DNA of 33,172 nt, from NCBI GenBank assembly GCA_043819135.1, contig JBDRFG010000029.1, forward strand, positions 1 through 33,172, in the 5' to 3' direction. Each line of letters opens with the position of its first letter. Within the stretch, counting starts at the first letter, position 1. Under the pieces are notes generated by a model. The model searched no databases and was not told the origin of the DNA. It worked only from the letters and a program-made list of their open reading frames with translations. Both the position numbers and the translations under genes were made by a program. Of the stretch, positions 3 through 32,040 are shown one piece after another. Source of the stretch: Candidatus Eiseniibacteriota bacterium (lineage in GTDB: Bacteria; Joyebacterota; Joyebacteria; Joyebacterales; Joyebacteraceae).

Positions 3-2171
3 CAGCAGGTCTCGCTGCAGCTGTTCGACTCGTCGGGCGATCCGGAGCCGTCGGCCGTCGTTCCGATGAACGCGCAGAACGGAGTCTGGACAGCCATCGG
101 CCGGCCCGACTGGAAGGGGAAGTTCTACCTCTACGACGTCACGGTCTTCGTGCCCCGCACGGGCGCCGTCGAGCACAACGTGGCGACCGACCCGTACTCG
201 CGCAGCCTCTCCACGGACAGCCGCAGGAGCCAGATCGTGGACCTGTCGGATCCAGCGCTCATGCCGGAGGGCTGGAACGAGTTCGAGAAGCCGGGCCTCG
301 AGGCGCCGACGGACATCGTGATCTACGAGCTTCACGTCCGCGACTTCAGCGCGAGCGACCCGACTTGCCCGGACGAGTTCGTCGGAACCTACAGGGCGTT
401 CACGGTCGAGTCGAACGGGACGCGTCATCTCTCGGCGCTCGCGGAGGCCGGGCTTACTCACCTGCACCTGCTGCCCGCCTTCGACATAGCCTCGGTGAAC
501 GAGGACAAGTCGACGTGGCTGTATCCCGGCGACCTCACGCAGTTCCCCGCCGATTCCGACAAGCAGCAGGAGGCCGTCTCGGACATCAACGGTCAGGACC
601 CCTACAACTGGGGCTACGACCCCTACCACTACGGCGTGCCAGAGGGCAGCTACTCGACCGACCCCGACGGGGCCCAGCGCATCCTCGAGTTCCGCGAGAT
701 GGTCAAGGCGCTGTCTGACATGGGCCTCAGGGTCGTCATGGACGTCGTCTACAACCACACGCACGCGAGCGGCGTCAGCGACAAGTCCGTGCTGGACAAG
801 GTCGTGCCGGGCTACTACCACCGCCTGAACAAGGACGGGCTCGTCGAGACCAGCACGTGCTGCCAGAACACGGCGACCGAGCACGATATGATGGAGCGTC
901 TCATGGTCGACGACCTGGTCCACTGGGCGACCGATCTGAAGGTGGACGCGTTCCGGTTCGACCTGATGGGCCACCACATGGTCTCGAACATGGAGAGGGC
1001 GCGCGACGCCCTGCACGCGCTCCGGCCTGAGACGGACGGGGTCGACGGCGAGGCCATCTATCTCTACGGAGAGGGATGGGACTTCGGAGAGGTCCAGGGC
1101 GGCAAGCGCGGCAGGAACGCGACGCAGTCCAACATGGCGGGTACCGGCATCGGCTCGTTCAACGACCGCATCCGCGATGCCATCCGTGGTGGCAGCGCGT
1201 TCAGCGACCGACGCGAGCAGGGGTTCGCGACGGGCATGTTCCTCGACCCGAACGGTTTCAACCAGGGGACGGGCCCCGACAGGGGCACGCTCCTCAATCA
1301 GTCGGACAGGATCAGGATAGGCCTGGCGGGCAACCTCTCCGCCTACCGGTTCATCGACCACACGGGGCGCGAGATGCGCGGCGGGATGTTCGAGAGCGTT
1401 GGCTACGCCGCACAGCCGTGCGAGGCCATCAACTACTGCTCCGCGCACGACAACGAGACGTTCTTCGATAAGATACAGTATTCGGCCGCACCGTCGGCGA
1501 CGCTGGCCGACCGCGTGCGCATGCAGAAGATGGGTCTCTCGATCGTGGCTCTCGGCCAGGGCATTCCCTTCTTCCACGCGGGCAGCGACATGCTCCGCTC
1601 GAAGTCAATGGAAGCGGACAGCTACAACGCCGGCGACTGGTTCAACAGACTGGACTGGAGCTACGAGTCGAACAATTTCGGCGTCGGGCTCCCGTCGGCG
1701 GAGAAGAACCACGACCGATGGAGCATCATCCGTCCGCTTCTCGCGCGAGAGGACATCAGGCCCGGCCGCGATGAGATCCTCGCGACCGTGCATCACTTCC
1801 GCGAGATGCTTAGCATAAGAAAGAGCTCGCCGCTCTTCCGCCTGTGCACGGCCGAGGACGTGATGGCTCGAGTGAGGTTCCTGAACACCGGCGCGAAGCA
1901 GGTGCCGGGGCTCATCGTCATGGAGATCAAGGACGAGATGGACGGCCTGAAGCCGCTCGACCCGGCGAACCGGCGCATCGTCGTCCTCTTCAACGCGGCG
2001 AAAGAGGCGGTCACCTTCGATCACGTCGACTTCAAGGGAGTGGAGTTCATGCTCCACCCCGTGCAGACCGTGTCCAAGGACGAATGGGTCAAGCAGTCGA
2101 GCTACGACGCGCAGAAGGCGAAGTTCTCCGTCCCTGCGAGAACGACCGCCGTCTTCGTGGAGCGCGGGTGA
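3..2171 (+). CDS. pulA: Pullulanase-type alpha-1,6-glucosidase (GH13), 5'-truncated by the window edge
   Basis: The frame is open from position 3. Pullulanase motifs: [24 protein letters not shown] (nucleophile), YGEGW (acid/base), NYCSAHDN. Confidence 0.93.
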
Positions 2172-2247
2172 CCGGGTCCGGGCTGGAGAGGTGCGTAGCG
2201 TCCGCGCGGCGGGAGGAGAGACCGGCACCGGAGGAGCCGAGCCGGAC

Positions 2248-2337
2248 ATAGAGCGGGCGACTGGAGGATAGGTTCGCAACCGATCCAGCCGCCCGGGCAG
2301 GAGCGAGAACGCGCTAGACGCCCTCTGCTCCCTCTAC
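2248..2337 (-). ncRNA. Candidate ~90 nt small RNA (three-way junction), no family recognised
   Basis: Starts after a 6 nt spacer from a TTGACA-N17-TAGATT promoter. Folds as P1 GUAGAG/CUCUAU, P2 GGAGC-A-GAGGGCG/CGUUCUC-GCUCC, P3 CGGGCGGCUGGA/UCCAGUCGCCCG. All 4 non-Watson-Crick pairs are G-U on the minus strand and would be A-C on plus. Confidence 0.6.
2255..2333. repeat. Direct repeat copy 1 (79 nt)
   Basis: Hand alignment to 2848-2925 gives 67/79 identical (11 substitutions, 1 gap). Confidence 0.92.
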
Positions 2338-2343
2338 TTGCAC

Positions 2344-2372
2344 AATCTACGGAGCGCGCCGTATTTTGTCAA
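2344..2372 (-). promoter_or_regulatory. Sigma70 promoter for the candidate sRNA
   Basis: Minus strand TTGACA (2372-2367), 17 nt spacer, TAGATT (2349-2344). Confidence 0.75.
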
Positions 2373-2623
2373 GAGAAACCCGACGCGAGGGCCTGTTGCG
2401 CCGGGAGCCCAGCCCGTGGAGCCGAGTGCACGGCCGGAGCCGCGCCGACACCGGACCTCTGCAACGTAGATGCGAATGAGGAGAGTCGGTTCAGCGCGCC
2501 GCGGACCGTGTGCGGTGAATGACGAGTCAATCGTTGTTTCCTGCGTTGCACGTGGGGTCTCCCGGGGACTCGATGTCATTGGTTCCATGGCGCGATCTCG
2601 GTGTCCGAACGGCACCTTTGCTA

Positions 2624-2652
2624 TTGACCAGTTGACGAAGTTTTGGTACCCT
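2624..2652 (+). promoter_or_regulatory. Putative distal sigma70 promoter
   Basis: TTGACC (2624-2629), 17 nt spacer, TACCCT (2647-2652), in an AT-enriched stretch. Confidence 0.45.
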
Positions 2653-2762
2653 CCTATCCAGTGTTGCTTGAATGCGGATATGTCGTGGACGACTCGCGGT
2701 AGCAACTGGAATAGATAGCAGGCGTCGCTCTGCTAGGCTTCAACCTTAGTGTGCAATACTTG

Positions 2763-2791
2763 TTGACCGTGGCATGCATGTTTGATAGACT
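2763..2791 (+). promoter_or_regulatory. Sigma70 promoter for the com-like/pilus transcript
   Basis: TTGACC (2763-2768), 17 nt spacer, extended -10 TGa-TAGACT (2786-2791). Confidence 0.65.
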
Positions 2792-2847
2792 GCCCACGCT
2801 GTGTTGAACGTGGGTCACACGTAGTGAAGTACGAGGCAGTAGAACAA

Positions 2848-2925
2848 GGGCGATCGGGGATAGGCTCGCAACCGATCCAGTCGCCCGGGCAGGAGTGAGG
2901 ACGCGCTCAGCGTCTTCTGCTCCCT
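2848..2925. repeat. Direct repeat copy 2 (78 nt), in the predicted 5' leader of the com-like gene
   Basis: About 85% identical to 2255-2333 and keeps both hairpins. The GGAGU-GAGGACGC/GCGUCUUC-U-GCUCC helix has two G-U pairs on the plus strand. Confidence 0.92.
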
Positions 2926-2964
2926 TATTGCGTGGACCGGGGCAGTGGAGAGAGGAGGTAGATC

Positions 2965-3000
2965 GTGTCCTGTCTCCTGACCCGGGTTCATGCCGGTTGA
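2965..3000 (+). other. Possible 11-aa upstream ORF (MSCLLTRVHAG)
   Basis: SD AGGAGGT (2953-2959), 5 nt spacer, GTG start, TGA at 2998-3000. Confidence 0.3.
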
Positions 3001-3060
3001 GCGGACTCGAGCGTCTGCAGAACTCCGCCGCCGCCAGCAACCGACCGCGAGGAACGATTG

Positions 3061-3249
3061 ATGGAGCACCGCGCCGAGAGTGTTGCCGAGGTGGAAGTGT
3101 CTGATGTGCGCTGTCCGAATTGCGGATTGCTGCTTGCGAGGAGAGACGGCGGTCAGCTGGTCGTTCGTTGGAAGGAGCTTCGCGTCAGCGTCGTCGGAGG
3201 CGCCACGAGGATCAACTGCCGTCGATGCGGCACGGAGTGCGAAGCCTAG
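3061..3249 (+). CDS. Small zinc-ribbon protein resembling phage Mu Com (translational regulator family)
   Basis: 62 aa with D-V-R-CPNC-G-LLL-A ... I-N-CRRC-G, the Com-type RCxxCxxLL...IxCxRC pattern. GAGGA SD at 3049-3053. Alternative TTG start at 3058. Confidence 0.7.
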   Translation: MEHRAESVAEVEVSDVRCPNCGLLLARRDGGQLVVRWKELRVSVVGGATRINCRRCGTECEA

Positions 3250-3337
3250 CCGGTGATCCTGTGCGGCCGGTGGACCGTGCGGCCACAATGAGCGTGTCCT
3301 CTTAAGGTGTCGGTGCCTTTCCGAGGGAGAGAGAACA

Positions 3338-4402
3338 GTGACCAGAGGTTCGAGAAGCCCGAAGCACCCACGGAGGAGTCTGGCGTGCCCGCCGCGTCCC
3401 TGCTCTCACGATGAGGCAGTGCGTGGCTCTTCTTGTCTGGGGCCAGCGCCGTTCAGACTCGGCGGGCTCCGTGCAGTCGCGGTGGTCGCTGTGGCCCTGC
3501 TTGCTTGCGCGCCGGTCCGCGCGCATGCCGACCCGAGCTTGACGATGGATCCGCCGCTCGTTCATCTGGGCTCCTTCTCGACACTGGAGCCGCTTGAATC
3601 CGACCTCGTGTCGGGGACAACCGACATCGTGATCATATCGACCGAACCCTGGTGGCTCGAAGTCCAGGTGGCCGGTCCCATCCATCGGATTTCCGACGGG
3701 CTCGAGCTGCCAATGGAGCGCGTGCCCGAGGCCTACCCGGGCATCCCGGATGAGATCATCAACCTGCAGCCCTACATCTACAACTGGGCCTCGGGATCGG
3801 AATCGCCCGTGATCATCAGCGGCGAGTGGCTGGAACTCTCAACGATCGTGGAGGCGTACCTTGAGCCCGGCGATCCGCCGGGAACGTACGAGGCGGTTCT
3901 GTTCGCCCGGCTTCTGGACAGCGATGGGAGTCCGGTGACCGGCTACGAGACACTGACGATGCAGTTCGACGTGGAGCCGTGGGTGGATCTGGTGATGACC
4001 ACCCTGCCGGACTATGAGATCAGCGTCCCCGATGGGACGTTCGAGGGTGAGGGCGATGTCGTGCTGGTCAGCCTGGCCAGCAACACGAGTTGGGTTCTCT
4101 CTGTCCGCGGAACCGGAGACCTGTTGGACGAGCAGGGCGGCGGCGCAATAGGAGTGAGTGCCCTGTCGGTTTGTGGTGAGGAGGTTGGCGGAGGAATCAC
4201 ACGGAGGCCCTGGAGGTCCGGGTGTGAGACGGTTCAGTTGAGTCCGACTGCTCTGGCGGCGGGCGGCGAACCGGATCCATTTACCGTGTCTCTGGTGGAG
4301 ATTCCGATATTCTTCCGCTTCGAGGGCGAACCACCGCTCCCGGCCGGAAGGTATGGTGCTTCCTTGGTGTTCGAGGCAACGGCGAATGGGTTCGCGCCAT
4401 GA
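3338..4402 (+). CDS. Secreted two-domain pilin/adhesin-like subunit
   Basis: Hydrophobic signal core ending AHA-D. Two beta-rich repeats each end in a pilin-like last strand (PPGTYEAVLF, PAGRYGASLVF). Sits next to chaperone and usher genes. Start codon uncertain. Confidence 0.6.
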   Translation: MTRGSRSPKHPRRSLACPPRPCSHDEAVRGSSCLGPAPFRLGGLRAVAVVAVALLACAPVRAHADPSLTMDPPLVHLGSFSTLEPLESDLVSGTTDIVIISTEPWWLEVQVAGPIHRISDGLELPMERVPEAYPGIPDEIINLQPYIYNWASGSESPVIISGEWLELSTIVEAYLEPGDPPGTYEAVLFARLLDSDGSPVTGYETLTMQFDVEPWVDLVMTTLPDYEISVPDGTFEGEGDVVLVSLASNTSWVLSVRGTGDLLDEQGGGAIGVSALSVCGEEVGGGITRRPWRSGCETVQLSPTALAAGGEPDPFTVSLVEIPIFFRFEGEPPLPAGRYGASLVFEATANGFAP

Positions 4403-4660
4403 TGCAGCCAGAAGAAAGGGGGGGTGTCTAGGGGCAGGTTGCTTCACGTTCGGGCGGTCCCGGACGGTGGTGGAACCACCGGCTGAGGCCACGCTGGCGA
4501 CGAGGGCTCTGGAGGAGCGCCGACACGGAATGACGATCGGAGCACCGAGCAAGGGACCCGCCGCACGCGCGACTTCTCAGCCGAGAGTGCCGAGGCGACG
4601 AGCAGGAATCTGTGGCCTCGGCGGCAGAAACCGTTTGACCTACCAAGGAGGATTGCGAAA

Positions 4661-5212
4661 ATGAAGTGGATTATCTCACTCGCGTGCCTGGCCCTCATGT
4701 TTGGAATCGCCGTGGCAGACGAGACCGACGAGGCCCTGCTGGAAGTGTTCGTCGAGGTGGACGCCAACATGACAGTTGCCCCGGGTGCCCCTTTCATCGA
4801 CCTGCAGTCAGTCCAGGTCGGCCCGATCACGGGGTACATTCCGTTCATCGTCGACGCGAACACGCAGACCTGCATGTTCTACGCTGCCGCGTCGAGGCTC
4901 TACAAGGGCGATGATCCGATCAGCCCCGAAGTTCCGCCGATCGATCTTCTCGAGGCGTCCGGGATCAACTTCAGCGTCCCCGATGGCGATCCCACGGGCG
5001 GCGCGGACAACAACGCCTGCTACATGGGCGACACCGTGATCAACGGGTTCCCTGGTAAGTTCTGCGAGTGGATCGAGTTCGAGAGCTCACAGAACAACCG
5101 CTTCAGCCAGACGATGACGCTCGAAGTGACGTGGTTCCAGGACAACCCCGAGAAGCCGATGGGCGAGTACAGCGGCTTCGTCGAGTTCTTCGCCATGATC
5201 GTTCTCCCTTAA
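4661..5212 (+). CDS. Putative major pilin subunit 1
   Basis: Strong SD AAGGAGG, Sec signal peptide (AVA-D), 183 aa, C-terminal GEYSGFVEFFA strand typical of chaperone-usher subunits. Confidence 0.7.
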   Translation: MKWIISLACLALMFGIAVADETDEALLEVFVEVDANMTVAPGAPFIDLQSVQVGPITGYIPFIVDANTQTCMFYAAASRLYKGDDPISPEVPPIDLLEASGINFSVPDGDPTGGADNNACYMGDTVINGFPGKFCEWIEFESSQNNRFSQTMTLEVTWFQDNPEKPMGEYSGFVEFFAMIVLP

Positions 5213-5352
5213 GGGGAAACCCCTGGGTTGAGCGAGGAGGGACGTGGCCGCGGAGCTGCGCCGCGGGCTTGTCATCTTGGACTGCGGCAAGGTGTGCGAG
5301 AATTGCCGCCGGGCGTTCACTCCAAAGCAGTAATCGGATGCGGAGGCAGACC

Positions 5353-5381
5353 CCCCGGTCGGGCACGGCGCCCGACCGGGG
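5353..5381 (+). other. 12-bp GC-rich hairpin downstream of pilin 1 (stabiliser or attenuator)
   Basis: CCCCGGTCGGGC-acggc-GCCCGACCGGGG with no U-tract. Confidence 0.55.
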
Positions 5382-5519
5382 CCGCCGCCGACAGATGGCG
5401 TCCGTGCAGTCCGCGCCGGGAAGAGAGCGATCGCTTCTTCCGCCGGGCGCGGGAACCGTCAACCGTTCCAGTTGACCTGACGACCGTCCCGGTGAACAGG
5501 TCCCATGAGGCCAATAGAA

Positions 5520-6380
5520 ATGAGACATCTTTCACAAGTGGCTAATAGAGTGCTCCGAATCTCCGGAAGAACTGCCGGCCTGTTGGCGCTGCTCGCGCTT
5601 CTTCTGCCATCACTGGCGGGGGCCACGCTCTCGATCGAGCCGGCGTTCGTCGAGCTGGCGCTGGACAAGGGCAGGCCGTCAGCCGTCATCACGGTCACCA
5701 ACGTGACCGATCAAGAGACCCGGTATCGCGCCCAGCCCGCGCACTTTGTCTACAAGACGGACGGAAACTTCGAGCTGCAGGAGCCTGATGGTCAGTCGCT
5801 GGCACTCTGGTTGAAGTTCAATCCTCGTGAGTTCACGCTCGCTCCCAAGGAGAGTCGTGCGATCCGGCTGAGCGTCGTTCCCCCCAAGAACCTGGATGAC
5901 GGCGAATACTGGGCGGCCCTGCGGTTCGAGCCGCTGGAGGGGATCATTTCCAGGGGCGACGATGGCGCCGGACGCTCGGTGGCGGTAGAAGTGCGGGCGA
6001 ACATACTGGTCCCGATAGTGGGGCGCGTCGGCGAGCAGACGTATGTCTGCGACTTCAAGGACCTCAAGGCCTGGAGAAGCGACGAGGGTGTCGCGATCGT
6101 CGCGAGTATTGTCAACACCGGCACCGCACGTGTTCGCGTGAACGGCAGCTACGAGATCGTGGACTCCGCCGGGAACGAGGTGGCCGGAGGGGTGTTCGGT
6201 GAGGCCACGATCCTGGCGGGCGGCGAGAGAGTGTTCTCGCAGGTGGTCGAGGGCGAGTTCCCGGATGAGAACTACGACGTCCGCATTCGCTACACGTCGG
6301 AGACACTGAAGGACGATCTTGCGGGCCTCACTCACGTTCGCAACGAGGCTCCCGCCGACCTTCCGGGCGATGAACACTAG
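5520..6380 (+). CDS. PapD/EcpB-like pilus assembly chaperone
   Basis: Signal peptide, then LSIEPAFVEL...ITVTN...WLKFNPREFTLAPKESRAIRL...GEYWAAL, then a second Ig domain with NTGT. Alternative start at 5505. Confidence 0.82.
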   Translation: MRHLSQVANRVLRISGRTAGLLALLALLLPSLAGATLSIEPAFVELALDKGRPSAVITVTNVTDQETRYRAQPAHFVYKTDGNFELQEPDGQSLALWLKFNPREFTLAPKESRAIRLSVVPPKNLDDGEYWAALRFEPLEGIISRGDDGAGRSVAVEVRANILVPIVGRVGEQTYVCDFKDLKAWRSDEGVAIVASIVNTGTARVRVNGSYEIVDSAGNEVAGGVFGEATILAGGERVFSQVVEGEFPDENYDVRIRYTSETLKDDLAGLTHVRNEAPADLPGDEH

Positions 6381-6474
6381 ATTGCGGATCTTCCATCCTG
6401 AGGCGGCGGTCAGTCTCGTCGATCGGGAGCCATCCCAGCGGCCCCCAGCTTCTGTGAGGCCCAGAGGCCTGACC

Positions 6475-9400
6475 ATGGTGACGGAAAGCACGGGCAACAC
6501 GAGCGAGCGTCGACGGAAGTCGAGAAGCGAGGCGCGGTTCTCGCAACGCGCGAGACACGCGGCCTTCGCGGCGTCCTCCCGGCCAGGGTGTTCCCGGCTC
6601 CTCGTCGGTGTCCTGACGTTCGCCATCGTCCTTTCTGCCTGCACGTTCGCCTGGGCCCAGAACTCTGATGTCACCGCCCAGGCTGCAGACTCGCTTGCCC
6701 GGCAGCCGCGACTCGCCCGGGCCGCGCAGTCGGTGATCGAGACGACACTGGCGGGCCTCACGCTGAACGGGAGGGCTCGCTGGGAGAGACTCGTCCTGTC
6801 CGACCTCGACATCGTGGTGCGGGAGGACGGCACGCGGTTGTTGCCGCTCCTGCGGATACTCCGTGCACTCCACATTGATGTGGCCGACTCTGGGGGATCC
6901 CTGACCTTTCACCCGGAAGGTGCGAGCAAGGTCGTGCTCGACTACGAATCGGGTGAGGTCGCCTTCGGCCAGACGTCGCGCGAGGTGACACTGGTCGTCG
7001 GTTTGTCCGATCTCACTTTCGAGCCCGAGGTCTACGTTCCAGACGATCTGGTTGTGGAGCTTCTGGCGATCGACTCGCAATGGGACGCACAACGCTACGA
7101 GTACACCCTCTCCGCGGAACGCGAGCTGAGTGTCTTCCGGGAGAGGGGTCGCACACCCTCTCTTCTCGCGCGCTCGCGTGGGCCGGTGAGCATCGACCTG
7201 CCGGGCAATCTCCCGCCCGCCCCCGTCGATCGATCGCTGGCTCCACGTCTCGACTTCGCAAGCGTCCGGACGCGGTCAAGCGTCATCACTCGCGAGAACG
7301 ACGACAAGCTCTCGGGGGCGTTCTCCCCCCCTCGCCTCGAGATGTGGGGCCGCGTGCTCGGAGGGAGACTGAGCGCCGCGGTGAGGCAGAACGACACGTG
7401 GCCGACCGAGGGGTACAGCGTCGACCGAACATCGTGGCACAGCTGCTTCAGCAACGTGGAGGTAGAGGTTGGAGCCAACAGCCTCGGGCTCTCGCAGTTT
7501 GCGTTTCCGTCGATGAACCTGCTCGGTGCGAGGATCAACGGGAGCTTCGGAGGGTCGGGCGACGATCGTGGTCGAGACCTATCACAGATGGGGAGGCGTC
7601 AGAGGTACCAGCCCACGCAGATCGTTGAGGGGTATGCACCTCTGGGTTCGGAAGTCACGCTCGAGATCAATGGACAGACGGTCGACGTTCAGATCGTTGA
7701 GGACGAAGACGGAGCTCCTCCCGGGGAGGGGATCTATCGCTTCGACGGCTTCAATCTGTTCACGAGTCGGCTCAACAGCGTTCGCGTGATAGTGGTCGCC
7801 CCCGATGGGACGGTCGATGAAACTGAACGCCAGGTGCTTGGGTCGGATCAGCTGGCCGACGAGGGTGACATGACATTCATGGGCGCCGTCGGCGGGAGAC
7901 GACTCCCGTCTACCGACGGTCTGTCCTCACAGGGCTTTTTCGCCGGGGGGCGGCTCAGCTACGGGCTCAGCAGCAACCTGACGCTCGGCGCAACGGCGGC
8001 GATCCAGGATGGGCTCTACGAGGAGGACACGGCGATAGCCTACGTTGGGGCGGAGAGCGATACGCTGCCCTCGAAGAGCCTCCACGCGGGGTCGCGCTGT
8101 GTCTGGCGCCCCTTCGGTCCCCTCCTGGTTCAGGTGGAGGGTGCCGGAAGCCGCGTCCCCGATACCTCGGAGAGCGACTGGGCGGGCAAAGCCGGCGCAG
8201 AACTGCACGTCGGCGGCGCGCGCCTGTACCCCGCGCTCTTTCGGTATGGTCCGTCGTTCTTCGACGGCCGGAACGCCGAACTCCGGGATGTGTTGGGCGG
8301 GAGTGCGAGTCTTGTCTGGCGCTCCGTCGGTGGGAACGAGGTGGCTGTCGGTGCCTGCCGCTCGCGGGACAACCTGGACCGGCACCAGGAGGAAACGACC
8401 CAGCTCACCGATTTCGCTTTCAACGTCGACGCACGCACGCTCATTCCCCGATCGACTCTATCCCTGGGCACCAACGTGCTCTGGATAGGAGAGGATTCAC
8501 CGCTGCGATTTGACGTACTCGGCCTGAACACGGGTCTGCCATCCGGTTGGTCTCTCCGCAGCCGTTTCGTTCTCGGAGACGACCTCCGGGCCGCGTTGCG
8601 AGATGAACTCCCTGACGGTTCGTCGTCTCGGTTCGACAGGATTCGCAGGCAGGCCGCGGCGTACGATGCGCGTTCCGCGCTGGGATCGAGCGTCCTCGGC
8701 ACGAGAGTCGAACTCAGGCGCAGGCTGAGTTCGAGTTGGCAGCTGGCCCTCTCTCACAGGACCTCGCCGAGTCTCACGCGCACCTCGGCTGATCTCACTC
8801 GGAACCGCGCGGCCGACGGCCGCTGGCAATGGCGGCTCACGCCGGGGTACGACTGGGACCGGCAAACCCCGTACCTGCAGAACCGCCTCGAGTACCTCGT
8901 CGACTCCGGCCACCGCAATCGCATCGTTCTCGAGACCCAGTTTGTCGAGAACGACTGGTTCGCCCGTCTGTCCATCCAGATGCAGTTCGATGTCGGGTTT
9001 GTCGGCAATCGCCCGGTGTCTCTTGGAGACAGCTACATGAATCCCGACGTTGGAGGAGTCAAGGGCAGGGTATTTGTGGATTTCAACGGCAACGGGCTTC
9101 CCGACGACGGCGAGCCGGGACTGGAGGAAGTTGACGTCACGTCGGACATGGGGCTCCAGGTCTCGTCAAAGAAAGGGGGCCTGTTCGTTATTCCGAACAG
9201 CTCTCACCGGCGTGGGGCGACCGTCGGCCTCGTGCCCGAAACTCTGCCGGCAATCTACACACCGACGCAGGCGACTCAGGAGGCCATCCTGCGGCCGGGG
9301 ATGCTCACCGAGATCAACCTCGGTGTGGGCGCCTTCGGTTCGATCACGGGGTGGGTGCGAGCCCGGAGCGACGGGGAGGAGCCGCAGGGCGTCGGCGGCG

Positions 9401-9702
9401 TGGGGGTCGTGCTGGTCGGCGCTGACGGACGGGTCGTCGGCGCGTCGATCACCGCCAGCGACGGGAGCTACTACCTGGGTGAAGTCAGACCGGGCTCGTA
9501 TGTCGTCACCGTCGCGGACGGGGGGCTTCCCGAGGGTCTCGAGCTTGATCAGACAGAGATTCCCATTGATGTCTTTCCGAACGCCGAGTTCTACGAGATC
9601 GAAGACGTGAATCTGACCGGCGTGTACGCGGCTCCGCCTGAGGAAGAAGCCGGGGAGCATCAGGAAGAGGGAGAGGGAGTCGAGTACAGGGTCTTCGACT
9701 AG
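6475..9702 (+). CDS. Large usher-like outer membrane protein with C-terminal SdrD-B/carboxypeptidase-regulatory-like domains
   Basis: Signal core ending AWA-Q, alternating beta-strand barrel segments, plug-like EGYAPLGSEVTLEING, SYGLSSNLTLG, then GRVFVDFNGNG..D.GE and DGSYYLGEVRPGSY. Directly follows the chaperone. Confidence 0.72.
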   Translation: MVTESTGNTSERRRKSRSEARFSQRARHAAFAASSRPGCSRLLVGVLTFAIVLSACTFAWAQNSDVTAQAADSLARQPRLARAAQSVIETTLAGLTLNGRARWERLVLSDLDIVVREDGTRLLPLLRILRALHIDVADSGGSLTFHPEGASKVVLDYESGEVAFGQTSREVTLVVGLSDLTFEPEVYVPDDLVVELLAIDSQWDAQRYEYTLSAERELSVFRERGRTPSLLARSRGPVSIDLPGNLPPAPVDRSLAPRLDFASVRTRSSVITRENDDKLSGAFSPPRLEMWGRVLGGRLSAAVRQNDTWPTEGYSVDRTSWHSCFSNVEVEVGANSLGLSQFAFPSMNLLGARINGSFGGSGDDRGRDLSQMGRRQRYQPTQIVEGYAPLGSEVTLEINGQTVDVQIVEDEDGAPPGEGIYRFDGFNLFTSRLNSVRVIVVAPDGTVDETERQVLGSDQLADEGDMTFMGAVGGRRLPSTDGLSSQGFFAGGRLSYGLSSNLTLGATAAIQDGLYEEDTAIAYVGAESDTLPSKSLHAGSRCVWRPFGPLLVQVEGAGSRVPDTSESDWAGKAGAELHVGGARLYPALFRYGPSFFDGRNAELRDVLGGSASLVWRSVGGNEVAVGACRSRDNLDRHQEETTQLTDFAFNVDARTLIPRSTLSLGTNVLWIGEDSPLRFDVLGLNTGLPSGWSLRSRFVLGDDLRAALRDELPDGSSSRFDRIRRQAAAYDARSALGSSVLGTRVELRRRLSSSWQLALSHRTSPSLTRTSADLTRNRAADGRWQWRLTPGYDWDRQTPYLQNRLEYLVDSGHRNRIVLETQFVENDWFARLSIQMQFDVGFVGNRPVSLGDSYMNPDVGGVKGRVFVDFNGNGLPDDGEPGLEEVDVTSDMGLQVSSKKGGLFVIPNSSHRRGATVGLVPETLPAIYTPTQATQEAILRPGMLTEINLGVGAFGSITGWVRARSDGEEPQGVGGVGVVLVGADGRVVGASITASDGSYYLGEVRPGSYVVTVADGGLPEGLELDQTEIPIDVFPNAEFYEIEDVNLTGVYAAPPEEEAGEHQEEGEGVEYRVFD

Positions 9703-9796: not shown

Positions 9797-10378
9797 ATGA
9801 TGAGGCAAACGCTCCTCCTGCTGATGCTTGCAGTGTTCGTCACGGGCGTCACAGGGACAACCTTCGCCGAGACGGACGACGATGCGGTCACCGCAGTGTT
9901 CGTCCGCGTTCTCCCAACCATGGTCGTAGAGCCGGGCGCCAGCTTCTTTGACATGGGCAGAGTCGGTGTGGGCGAGATCCGTGGCTACATGCCGTTCGTG
10001 GTCGATTCCAATGTCCAGACAGTGGCGTTCATGGCATCAGCGTCTCTCCTCTTCAAGGGTGCCGATGCGGTCGACCCCGAGGTCCCTCCGATCGACCTCT
10101 TAGCGGACGCGGGTGTCAGCTTCTCCATCGCGGACGGGGGGCCTACCGGAGGCCACGACAACATCGCCGCGTTCACGGACCTGTGCGACGTCAACGGGTT
10201 CCCGGGGCTGGAGACGGAATGGGTCGAGTTCGAGAGCTCGCAAAACAACCGCTTCAGCCAGGGCGTCATCATGGAAGTCACGTGGATCCAGGACGACCCC
10301 GAGAAGCCCAGGGGCGAGTACACCGGGTTTGTCGAGCTCTTCGCGATGGTTACCGAGGAGGGACTCCCCACTCGCTAG
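9797..10378 (+). CDS. Putative pilin subunit 2, paralog of 4661-5212
   Basis: Signal peptide. Shares PEVPPIDLL, PTGG.DN, NGFPG, EFESSQNNRFSQ, EVTW.QD.PEKP.GEY.GFVE.FAM with pilin 1. Confidence 0.75.
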   Translation: MMRQTLLLLMLAVFVTGVTGTTFAETDDDAVTAVFVRVLPTMVVEPGASFFDMGRVGVGEIRGYMPFVVDSNVQTVAFMASASLLFKGADAVDPEVPPIDLLADAGVSFSIADGGPTGGHDNIAAFTDLCDVNGFPGLETEWVEFESSQNNRFSQGVIMEVTWIQDDPEKPRGEYTGFVELFAMVTEEGLPTR

Positions 10379-21188: not shown

Positions 21189-22517
21189 ATGTTCGAGCAG
21201 CTTTCGGAGCGATTCCAAAGCGCGTTCAGGTCGCTGACCGGACGGGGAAGACTCAGCGAGGCCAACATCGAGGAGGCGCTCAGGGAGGTTCGGCGAGCGC
21301 TGCTCGAAGCTGACGTCAACTTCAAGGTCGCGCGCGGGTTCGTGGAGGACGTCAAGGCGCGTGCGATCGGCGAGGATGTTCTCAAGAGCGTCACGCCGGG
21401 CCAGCAGATGGTCAAGGTCGTCCACGACGAGCTGGTCGGCCTGCTCGGAGGACGCGCGGACCCGTTCCGGATCCCGTCGGGTGCACCCGCGGTCGTAATG
21501 GTCGTGGGGCTCCAGGGGTCGGGCAAGACGACGTTCTGCGCGAAGCTGGCGAACTACCTCCGACGCAGGGGGAAGAGCCCGATGCTCGCCGCGGCGGACA
21601 CGTACCGCCCGGCGGCTCAGGAGCAACTGGCCACGCTCGGCGGACAGCTTGGCCTGCCGGTGCACGTAGGCGAGGCGGGCGCGGACCCTGTCGGGATCGC
21701 GACGTCGGCGCTTCGTGAGGCCAGAGAGACGGGGTCGGACATCGTCATTCTGGATACCGCGGGGCGGCTGCACGTCGACGACGACATGATGTCCGAGCTC
21801 GAGCGGATTCGAACGGCCACGAGGCCATCCGAGATCCTGCTTGTCCTGGACAGCATGACCGGCCAGGACGCTGTAAACGTCGCGTCGGAGTTCGCGAGAA
21901 GGCTCGATTTCACCGGTGCCGTCCTGTCGAAGCTCGACGGTGACACGCGCGGGGGCGCAGCAGTGTCCCTCCGTGCCGTTACGGGCAAACCCATCAAGTT
22001 TGCCAGCATGGGCGAGAAGCTGGATGCGCTCGAAGCGTTTCACCCGGACCGCATGGCATCGCGGATCCTCGGCATGGGCGACGTTGTCACCCTGGTGGAT
22101 CGCGCGCAGGAGGTCACCGACCTCGACGAGGCGGCGAAGCTCGAAGAAAAGATCCGCAAAGAGAGCCTGACGCTCGAGGACTTCGCCGAGCAGATTCAGG
22201 CGCTGAAGAAGATGGGCCCTCTCGACCAGCTCGTCGGCATGATGCCCGGCATGAGCAAGATGGGCAAGGTGGACGTCGACGAACGGGCGCTGGCACGGGT
22301 GGAAGCGATCATCAGCTCGATGACGCCAGGCGAGAGAAGAAACCCGGCGGTCATCGATGGAAGCAGACGTAGGCGCATCGCGAGGGGGAGCGGGACGACC
22401 GTGCAGGACATCAATCGTCTCCTCAAGCAGTTCGACGCGATGAAGAAGATGGCAAAGCAGTTCGGGAAGCTGGGGAAGCGCGGGAAGATCCCCGGCTTGA
22501 CACCATTCGGCGTGTGA
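21189..22517 (+). CDS. ffh: Signal recognition particle protein
   Basis: MFEQLSERF start, [24 protein letters not shown], Met-rich M domain with [11 protein letters not shown]. Confidence 0.98.
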
Positions 22518-22582
22518 TGGCACTGCATGGTCCCTGGCACGCGCGGACACCGGACAAAACGAGTAGACGAGGAGGAAGACTG

Positions 22583-23245
22583 GTGGCGGTACGAATCAGA
22601 CTGCAGCGCAAGGGCGCTAAGCAAATGGCCTTCTACCGGATCGTGGTAGCCGACGCAAGAGCGCCCAGGGACGGCCGGTTCATCGAGCAGCTGGGCTATT
22701 ACGATCCGCTCAAGGAGCCCGCGGACATCAAGGTCGAAACGGAGAAGGTGCTCGACTGGTTCGGCAAGGGGGCGAAGCCGACCGAGACGGTGAAGTCACT
22801 CTTCTCTCGCGTTGGGATCATGGAGACCTGGCATCACGTTCGCCAAGGCAAGCCCTACGATGAGGTACGTCACATCGAGGACGAAGCCCGCAAGAGGATG
22901 GAGGCCGCGGCCTCCATGCAGAAGCGGACGACGGAAGTGACGAAGGCGGCGAAGAAGGCCGCCAAGACGGCCGACGAGGAGCAGGTGGAGCCTGCGGTCG
23001 ACGACGCAGGATCCGAGGCGACTGGCGCCGAGGAGGCGGCGGCAGAACCCGCGGCGGAACCGCAGGTGGAGGCGGAGGACGCTGCCAGCTCCGACGCCGT
23101 GGCGGAATCGGGTGGTGAGGAAACTGCGGAGACGCCGGAGGAGGCACCGGAGGCTGAAGAGACAGCAGCCGAGCCGGAGCCCGAGAAGGCACCGGAGGCT
23201 GAAGAGACAGCAGCCGAGCCGGAGCCCGAGAAGACCGAGGGGTAG
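22583..23245 (+). CDS. rpsP: 30S ribosomal protein S16 with long acidic C-terminal extension
   Basis: GTG after [17 protein letters not shown]...[25 protein letters not shown]. Confidence 0.96.
23144..23233 (+). repeat. Exact 45-bp tandem duplication in the rpsP tail ([15 protein letters not shown] x2)
   Basis: 23144-23188 is identical to 23189-23233. Confidence 0.97.
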
Positions 23246-31317: not shown

Positions 31318-32040
31318 TGACCTGCCCCCAGTAGTTGTACCACTTCTAGAGGTAGGATGCTGCCATTGGCGCTTGCCCCCAACCCTGGTCCAGACCTAGT
31401 GCCATTCTGTGGTTCGTGCCGGGTCGTCCTTGTTGCTCCAGTCGACTCTGAAGCTGGCTGGCGGTACATGTCCTAAGCTGCCGTGCGGCCGGTCGTTATT
31501 GTACTCATTCCTCCACAAGTCCAGCACGACCAAGGCCTCTGTGATATCCAAGAGGTAGTGTTGCGACAGGCACTCACGTCTGACCGTGCCGTTGAACGCT
31601 TCGTTCCGCGCATTGTCGCCTGGTGTTCCGGGGCGGCTGAAGTCCAGCATCGTCAGAAGCTTGAGCGGCCTTCCGTCCAGGGTCCGCTCGAACACGAAGT
31701 CGTAAGACCACACATGGTCCCGGTGCTCGGGCCTCAGACGCACACACGAGCCGTCCGCAAGCCACAACCGCTTACGCTTCGGCTGCTTCTTCGGTACCCT
31801 CAAGCCCTCCTGGCGCCAGATCCGCTCCACCCGCTTGTGGTTCACGCGCCACCCCTCGGACCGCAAGAGCGCTGTCACACGGCGGTACCCGTATACCGCC
31901 CGTAATCACTCGCTAACGCCACCACCCGCTCGACCAGCAGCGCCTCATCGTCGGCTACGCGGCATGCGTAACGTTGTGTCGACCGGGACTGACCGAAGAC
32001 CCGGCATGCCCGACGCTCGCTCACGTCGAACGCAATGACG
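31318..32040 (-). mobile_element. Degraded IS3-family element (IS407-group-like), right end only
   Basis: Terminal TGACCTGCCCCCA at 31318, orfB fragments present, no orfA or left end. Confidence 0.88.
31396..32040 (-). pseudogene. IS3-family transposase OrfB pseudogene
   Basis: VSERRACR..GQSRSTQRY, 2-nt frameshift near 31891, VNHKRVERIWRQEGL, VWSYDF, then directly FSRPG...EAFNG..RRECL...YNNDRPHGSLG. The segment with the second catalytic Asp is missing. Confidence 0.9.

Follow-up and report, generated by a model that had tools for sequence, protein, structure and literature searches.

What is a small zinc finger resembling the phage Mu activator Com doing at the head of what looks like a pilus operon, and by what route could it act there? 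We addressed this question for a 33,172-nucleotide stretch of DNA (the window), for which an earlier note, made from the letters alone, had proposed a domesticated Com-like translational regulator of pilus genes. Our reading is that the zinc finger, together with a set of predicted RNA hairpins beside its gene, probably switches the pilus-like genes on at the RNA level. The gene and its cluster are as follows.

3061 to 3249, + strand: 62-aa Cys4 zinc-ribbon protein, long-spacer Com-like (C18/C21, C53/C56), from its translation, profiles, a structural model and codon comparison
3338 to 4402, + strand: orfA, a secreted protein of no known family, next to the zinc finger at 7/7 loci, with a GTG start at 3338 or 3419
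4661 to 5212, + strand: pilin-like protein 1, with an Ig-like fold, whose nearest structural matches are chaperone-usher pilins
5505 to 6380, + strand: chaperone-like periplasmic protein, one homologue of which is named 'fimbrial chaperone protein' by its source
6319 to 9702, + strand: usher-like large protein with C-terminal SdrD_B domains, its true start probably later than 6319
9797 to 10378, + strand: pilin-like protein 2, 54% identical to pilin 1

The zinc-finger ORF is indeed the first gene of this cluster, preceding all of the others listed. Its translation contains two CxxC pairs (C18-x2-C21 and C53-x2-C56) separated by 31 residues, plus C60, as well as both of the patterns that had been claimed for it, RCxxCxxLL and IxCxRC, and an SD-like GAGGA is found 8 nt upstream of its ATG. 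Comparison with three orthologues over 47 core codons revealed 21, 19 and 14 synonymous differences and 9, 13 and 17 non-synonymous ones, with an NG86 dN of 0.13-0.33 and a dS that was saturated in two orthologues and 1.06 in the third. The many synonymous changes and the high or saturated dS indicate that 3061-3249 is a real gene under coding constraint. It is also conserved, C18, C21, C53 and C56 being invariant in 55/55 aligned family sequences, and these four residues presumably bind zinc.

The surroundings of the cluster are not those of a phage. When the 27 ORFs of the window were compared with PHROGs, the eight that matched comprised seven housekeeping genes and one IS3 transposase fragment, which bears out the earlier remark that the window holds no phage or DNA-modification gene, and neither mom nor a DNA methyltransferase gene of a Mu-like prophage was present downstream of the zinc finger in the window or in the PHROGs scan. 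The two named methyltransferases in the window are the RNA enzymes RsmB and TrmD. Besides the IS3-family fragment (31396-31878, - strand), the remaining genes of the window are two for alpha-glucan enzymes, one for a hydrolase, a housekeeping series extending from yajC to a YifB ATPase gene, and one for a large protein of secreted type; at 22514-23245, ribosomal protein S16 carries a long C-terminal extension that is acidic and partly repeated. The absence of a prophage is less surprising because Com-like genes before non-mom host or cargo genes have been published (PMC6240691, PMC3899960): such genes precede llpA, tailocin cargo and levansucrase genes (PMC6240691) as well as methyltransferases in Mu-like prophages (PMC3299994).

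Kinship with Com itself was less evident from the single sequence than from the family. Searched alone, the window protein scored 15 bits (E 0.017) against PF10122, under the gathering cut-off of 22.9 bits, which denies it strict membership of this Pfam family. PF10122 ranked fifth among weak zinc-ribbon matches, other families matching equally or better (Zn_ribbon_3, E 0.0037; S27e, E 1.2e-4), and a search for the family in its own genome yielded nothing over the cut-off. The best PDB match by single sequence was likewise another zinc ribbon. These results speak for an alternative in which the protein is an unrelated zinc ribbon, eS27/HVO_2753-like or DNA-binding, and the repeats around its gene are DNA operators or chance. 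The predicted model points the same way: it is an all-beta zinc ribbon (pLDDT 75.3) for which no significant fold match was found (best BFVD match, E 7e-3 and TM 0.67; best PDB match, Z 3.5), and no Com structure was among its fold matches. Its Atlas matches were unnamed bacterial and phage clusters (0.93), and among 43 pattern matches in viral contigs no close relative was confirmed.

The family profile, however, prefers Com over other CxxC segments. A five-orthologue profile search recovered 61 representatives at E<=0.001, of which 53 were passed to Pfam, the eight longer than 130 aa being left out; PF10122 was matched at E<=0.001 by 7/53 and over the cut-off by 3/53. One close homologue is labelled 'phage FluMu protein Com' by its source, PHROG 6417 ('translational regulator') was the commonest PHROG, matched by 13/55 family members, and the 55-sequence family profile aligned with Mu Com at 93.0% probability (hhalign) with a single 16-column gap. 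In a control covering 191 CxxC..CxxC segments of the genome, three reached Com's 34.6 and the next scored 28.6, a modest margin over background that rests on about 31 columns; the three segments scoring at least 34.6 are the zinc-finger gene itself and its two paralogues. The profile match, the control ranking and the PHROG 6417 matches support the Com-like ancestry first put forward from the letters. The candidate sites described below, moreover, keep their pairing via G-U wobbles, occur on one strand only and overlap terminator-like stems or start codons, and we regard an unrelated zinc ribbon as very unlikely. These profile comparisons make the zinc finger a distant relative of Com, the RNA-binding activator of phage Mu; we read it as a Com-lineage protein with an insertion of about 15 residues before the second CxxC, outside PF10122 by that family's threshold, and there is a fair probability that it works like Com. 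The suspicion that its 31-residue spacer exceeds that of Mu Com was correct, the latter having 16 residues. The protein ends six residues past the last zinc Cys, without Com's disordered tail. A 123-aa homologue (P0013) consists of two tandem long-spacer zinc-ribbon units.

Linkage to the pilus-like genes proved consistent. Close orthologues of the zinc finger were found in genomes G013, G016, G061 (locus L014) and G078 (L050) and on the metagenome contigs L018/L019 and L020, giving, with the window, seven separate loci when the near-identical L018 and L019 are counted once, although these loci come from related MAGs and are not independent events. Weak matches (L015, L021, L022 and L023), covering 16-26 residues at one CxxC and lacking any cluster gene by tblastn, were excluded before counting. 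At all seven loci, in two phyla, the next gene is an orthologue of orfA, and pilin-, chaperone- and usher-like genes then follow to the end of each contig, so that the neighbourhood survey suggested earlier returned the same cluster at 7/7 loci. Close chaperone orthologues occurred in 3/31 genomes of the window's phylum, the same three that carry a close zinc finger, and in the second phylum both genes were found, adjacent, in the same 2/18 genomes. Neither a close zinc finger nor a close chaperone was present in seven other genomes of the window's genus (completeness 67-98%). This patchy presence, together with flanking genes that differ between most loci, suggests from gene order that the zinc finger and the pilus-like cluster form a mobile cassette. 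A second, distant chaperone-like cluster (26-28% identity) was seen in three family genomes, including L057 (G030:C205) and G024:C2 80200-84049, with the candidate small-RNA element described below at its flank in two of the three.

The label 'pilus' for this cluster is supported, not proven, mainly by the predicted pilin model. That model (pLDDT 91.2) gave chaperone-usher pilins as its top matches at Z 7-8, and its alignment with CfaE-CfaB reached a Z of 8.0 (rmsd 2.9, 117 aligned), near the level that the tool calls common; Ig-like pilin subunits with signal peptides are thus predicted in the cluster. The nearest Atlas family of the pilin was SCPU, covering 14% of a cluster. The usher-like and chaperone-like assignments come from weak matches: the usher family PF00577 was matched by one of three aligned usher-like proteins (E 4.5e-5), with no match in those of the window and L050, and the chaperone-like protein gave weak fn3_5 and WxLIP matches, with no PapD-family match and no PDB sequence match. 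A relation of orfA to the pilins was undetectable by hhalign (0.2%). The number and order of pilins vary, the window having a pilin paralogue after the usher-like gene, L050 two tandem pilins before the chaperone and L013 one pilin. In one metatranscriptome run, short contigs at depth 2-6, which cannot show transcription, strand or ends, fell on orfA, pilin 1 and the downstream hydrolase; none covered the zinc finger or its leader in that run, and two sister runs gave none from the locus.

A candidate target for the zinc finger, absent from the earlier note, emerged from the DNA alignment of the loci, in which a 15-mer, GAGGYTC-NN-GARGCC, is repeated around the gene. The predicted fold of the repeat is GA followed by GGYU[C-NN-GA]RGCC, and such a hairpin lies beside the zinc-finger gene at 7/7 loci. 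Relatives have one to three Com-type sites, and the window keeps one of three.

3345 to 3359, + strand: Com-type RNA hairpin (GA, 4-bp stem GGUU/AGCC, loop C-GA-GA), the one site still intact in the window's cluster

A descriptor of the hairpin matched 199 times in 5.39 million strand-bases of background (P 0.0055 per 150 nt); around the zinc-finger gene, it matched within 150 nt after the stop codon at 6/7 loci, with two copies at five, and within 400 nt upstream at three. The descriptor was written after most loci had been seen, but L050, fetched once the descriptor was fixed, provides an out-of-sample case, with exactly two matches on the + strand of 18 kb, both directly after the gene. Stem cells were paired in 48/48 instances over 12 sites, including the variants U-G/C-G/U-A and U-A/C-G/U-G. 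Covariation is thin, one pair having changed on both sides and the score being reached by 42/500 shuffles. No Rfam match was found in 2100-5600 of the window at E<=5.

The architecture of these sites is close to that published for Com. According to PMC6483171, the Com SELEX motif is GAGNNCC(N)2-3GAGNNCC; its CC(N)2-3GAG part occupies a hairpin loop, GA is the contact, and the closing pair is 'invariably C-G'. The 14 sites collected here agree with the motif at 7-10 of its 10 fixed positions, one of them at all ten, and the mismatches that recur fall on both bases of the loop-closing pair, which is U-A in 12 sites, U-G in one and C-G in one. Conversely, the native Mu site fits our hairpin descriptor once the first pair is relaxed. 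The SELEX match taken alone was rejected as evidence, an 8-of-10 match arising by chance in 26% of 150-nt stretches, and the candidate site derives its weight from position and pairing rather than from sequence match. On these grounds, the hairpin, built like the published Com site, is likely the RNA target of the zinc finger.

The wider family, whose contexts were taken from the 31 phylum genomes, contains variants of this arrangement. The phylum yielded 11 further family matches: six have two hairpins with the stem GGYG/CGCC, four near-identical ones have no descriptor match and one (L029), cut by a contig end, was left unscored for downstream sites. The window genome's own two paralogues (G000:C38:2737, L024/L036; G000:C107:90334-90474, L025/L039) are both followed by two GAGGYGC-NN-GACGCC hairpins, the second of which is predicted to pair up to the start codon of a gene of about 270 aa and no known family. 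The C107 paralogue lies among recombinase, AAA_24, DUF669 and ParB-methylase genes, a prophage-like element. A third group of paralogues (L033, L034, L035 and L038) stands before the same ~270-aa gene and keeps the start-codon-proximal helix, its altered sites failing the descriptor.

Folding of the pilus-linked leaders suggested how binding could be turned into control. At L013, L014, L020 and L050, the second hairpin contributes its 3' arm as the base of a long predicted stem ending in a U-run, an intrinsic-terminator-like overlap at 4/6 loci with a downstream site. Because this arm is shared, the small hairpin and the terminator-like stem are mutually exclusive in the predicted folds, and forcing the site hairpin costs 7.4 kcal/mol at L013, 10.9 at L014 and 8.2 at L020. 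The leader terminators of these three loci come from folding, a pattern scanner having missed their long, interrupted stems. Three upstream sites also pair downstream (P 0.75-1.0), with weaker U-runs.

We propose that the zinc ribbon recognises, in the transcript of its own operon, a short hairpin made up of GA, a 4-bp stem and a C-NN-GA loop. An intact cassette would carry tandem hairpins after the zinc-finger gene, the 3' arm of the second doubling as the base of the terminator, such that without the protein the terminator would form and leave the pilus-like genes untranscribed, whereas bound protein would hold the small hairpin and permit read-through into them. A further site before the zinc-finger gene at some loci could provide positive feedback. 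Antitermination of this kind, including the possible feedback, is in our view the best explanation of the locus and a moderately probable one.

The same hairpin could instead be bound by a Mu-style translational activator that frees the ribosome-binding site of the next gene. Translational activation of Mu mom is the only mechanism shown for Com (PMC6483171), and in the non-pilus paralogues the second hairpin overlaps AGGAGG while its 3' arm is predicted, as in Mu, to pair up to the next start codon in 5/5 folded loci (P ~1.0); in the window, too, a predicted hairpin covers GAGG and GTG 3419. At L013, L014, L020 and L050, however, the competing helix ends in a U-run tens to more than 100 nt before the start codon, and in the window forcing the site hairpin left the 3419 region paired in both folding windows tried. 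Since the site overlaps a terminator-like stem in the pilus-linked loci, antitermination is favoured over translational unmasking: action of the zinc finger on termination rather than on translation is more likely, and a purely Mu-style activator appears unlikely. From the earlier proposal of a Com-like translational regulator of pilus genes, the Com ancestry, the linkage and a candidate RNA target are retained, and 'translational' is given up, as the sites overlap terminator-like stems and not the ribosome-binding site. On the simplest model, one RNA-binding protein would hold a small hairpin against a larger competing helix, with antitermination as the outcome for the pilus cassette and control of translation as that for the mobile elements.

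The window itself departs from the arrangement of its relatives. No U-tract terminator was found in its leader or in that of L012, and L018/L019 has no downstream site. The sequences on either side of the zinc-finger gene contain the following features.

3360 to 3430, + strand: region corresponding to the terminator-like hairpin of L013, L014, L020 and L050, here with no U-tract; a predicted hairpin covers the candidate GTG at 3419
2624 to 2652, + strand: promoter-like TTGACC-17-TACCCT, aligned with sigma70-like sites in relatives; 8/12, below the scan threshold
2763 to 2791, + strand: second sigma70-like site, with a TG extension; 9/12
2250 to 2372, - strand: candidate small-RNA unit with a sigma70-like promoter (2372-2344), two hairpins and a U-rich tail
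2848 to 2925, + strand: promoterless second copy of the small-RNA element (85-87%), in the zinc-finger leader beside the position of the relatives' upstream Com-type site

The small-RNA element, seen in the window as a 68-nt direct repeat (2266-2333 and 2858-2925), occurs in 14/30 family genomes (loci L053, L054 and L056-L069). It comprises a variable hairpin followed by a conserved terminator-like hairpin with a strand-specific G-U pair; in 20 copies taken in the U-rich-tail orientation (seven further rows, the same copies on the other strand, were excluded), the 10-bp stem has a variable pair that is G-U in 11, A-U in seven and G-C in two, and a promoter of the form TTGAC-17/18-TAnnnT lies at a nearly fixed distance in 16/20. 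Rfam gave no match to the element other than one chance match (E 0.38) in 11 loci. These features suggest a small RNA, some 90-110 nt long, whose transcription runs away from secreted-protein genes; since the second copy of the element lies on the opposite strand in the leader, this candidate RNA would be complementary to the zinc-finger leader. At 2290-2325 of the window, the first repeat copy contains GCGCTAGACGCCC, which is near the paralogue-type Com site with the outer pair broken and may be chance.

A second alternative is that the system is a relic in this genome, its sites and terminator having decayed and control having passed on, for instance to the second promoter or to the antisense small-RNA copy in the leader. 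Two of the three sites are lost and no U-tract is present, the leader contains a copy of a conserved but unrelated element, and, as PMC3899960 states with the data not shown, interrupting the com gene ahead of the plasmid-borne lscB of P. syringae by a stop codon left levan/Lsc output unchanged. The zinc-finger ORF is nevertheless intact and constrained, and the surviving site at 3345-3359, the terminator-proximal copy, matches the family consensus perfectly, as only six sites in the genome do, so that a relic is, in our estimate, quite unlikely. The switch in the window may be partly eroded, however, and with one site and no clear terminator its function here is less certain than in the relatives. 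Counting against an antitermination switch are this eroded copy, the gaps at L012 and L018/L019, the negative com knockout and the missing Com-type tail, which may be needed for RNA rearrangement, as PMC6483171 suggests.

If the antitermination reading is true, it would add a very small type of antiterminator and a new way of controlling pili. A 2018 review states that the general role of com-like genes before other genes remains to be explored (PMC6240691), and a search largely confined to the open-access literature found no report of Com-type antitermination, of a long-spacer branch or of Com-linked pili. A 62-aa protein and a leader of some 100 nt would suffice to test the question directly, and the locus family offers matched pairs of protein and RNA site, textbook-looking terminators over the site and natural site variants; its weight is lowered by the organisms being uncultured and the window copy looking eroded. 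As a more speculative extension, which we consider doubtful though possible, the long-spacer Com branch as a whole could be a minimal antiterminator whose sites before and after its own gene make a portable, self-reinforcing on/off cassette that switches surface fibres in a subpopulation of cells without DNA inversion, with paralogues avoiding cross-talk by the closing pair (U-A in the pilus cassette, G-C in the mobile-element paralogues).

The locus recalls several known systems without coinciding with any of them. It shares with alternate/archaic chaperone-usher pili (CFA/I CfaB/CfaE, CS1 CooA, Csu, Ecp) the set of pilin, chaperone-like and usher-like genes and the predicted pilin fold; it differs in that the pilins and the chaperone have no sequence-family match, the usher matches weakly in one orthologue and Z is at most 8.0. 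In antiterminators of the BglG/LicT RAT type, the protein stabilises a small hairpin that overlaps an intrinsic terminator. The likeness to these is one of logic only: the protein fold and RNA site are different, sensing (PRD) domains are absent here and we claim no homology. In Pseudomonas, com-like genes are placed ahead of llpA bacteriocin genes, tailocin cargo and genes for levansucrase and glycosyl hydrolase; like the zinc finger here, they precede non-mom genes, often for exported products, and probably belong to mobile expression cassettes (PMC6240691, PMC3899960). These Pseudomonas genes, however, are PF10122 members, for which the accessible parts of the same two papers give no RNA site or mechanism and one negative knockout, whereas a candidate site and a terminator overlap are identified here. 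Mu Com is likewise a Cys4 zinc finger of about 60 aa with an RCxxCxxLL...[IV]E[IV]R N-terminal half, encoded by the first gene of its operon and with an RNA hairpin nearby that has a 5' GA, a 4-bp stem and a C-(N)2-3-GA loop. The two differ in the spacer (16 residues in Mu, 31 here), in the C-terminal tail, absent here, and in loop closure, which is U-A in the candidate site and C-G in the Com site. The candidate site is found in a leader between genes, where it overlaps a terminator-like stem, whereas the Mu site is inside com, next to the translation-inhibition hairpin, and the proposed targets are pilus-like host genes where that of Mu is a DNA-modification gene.
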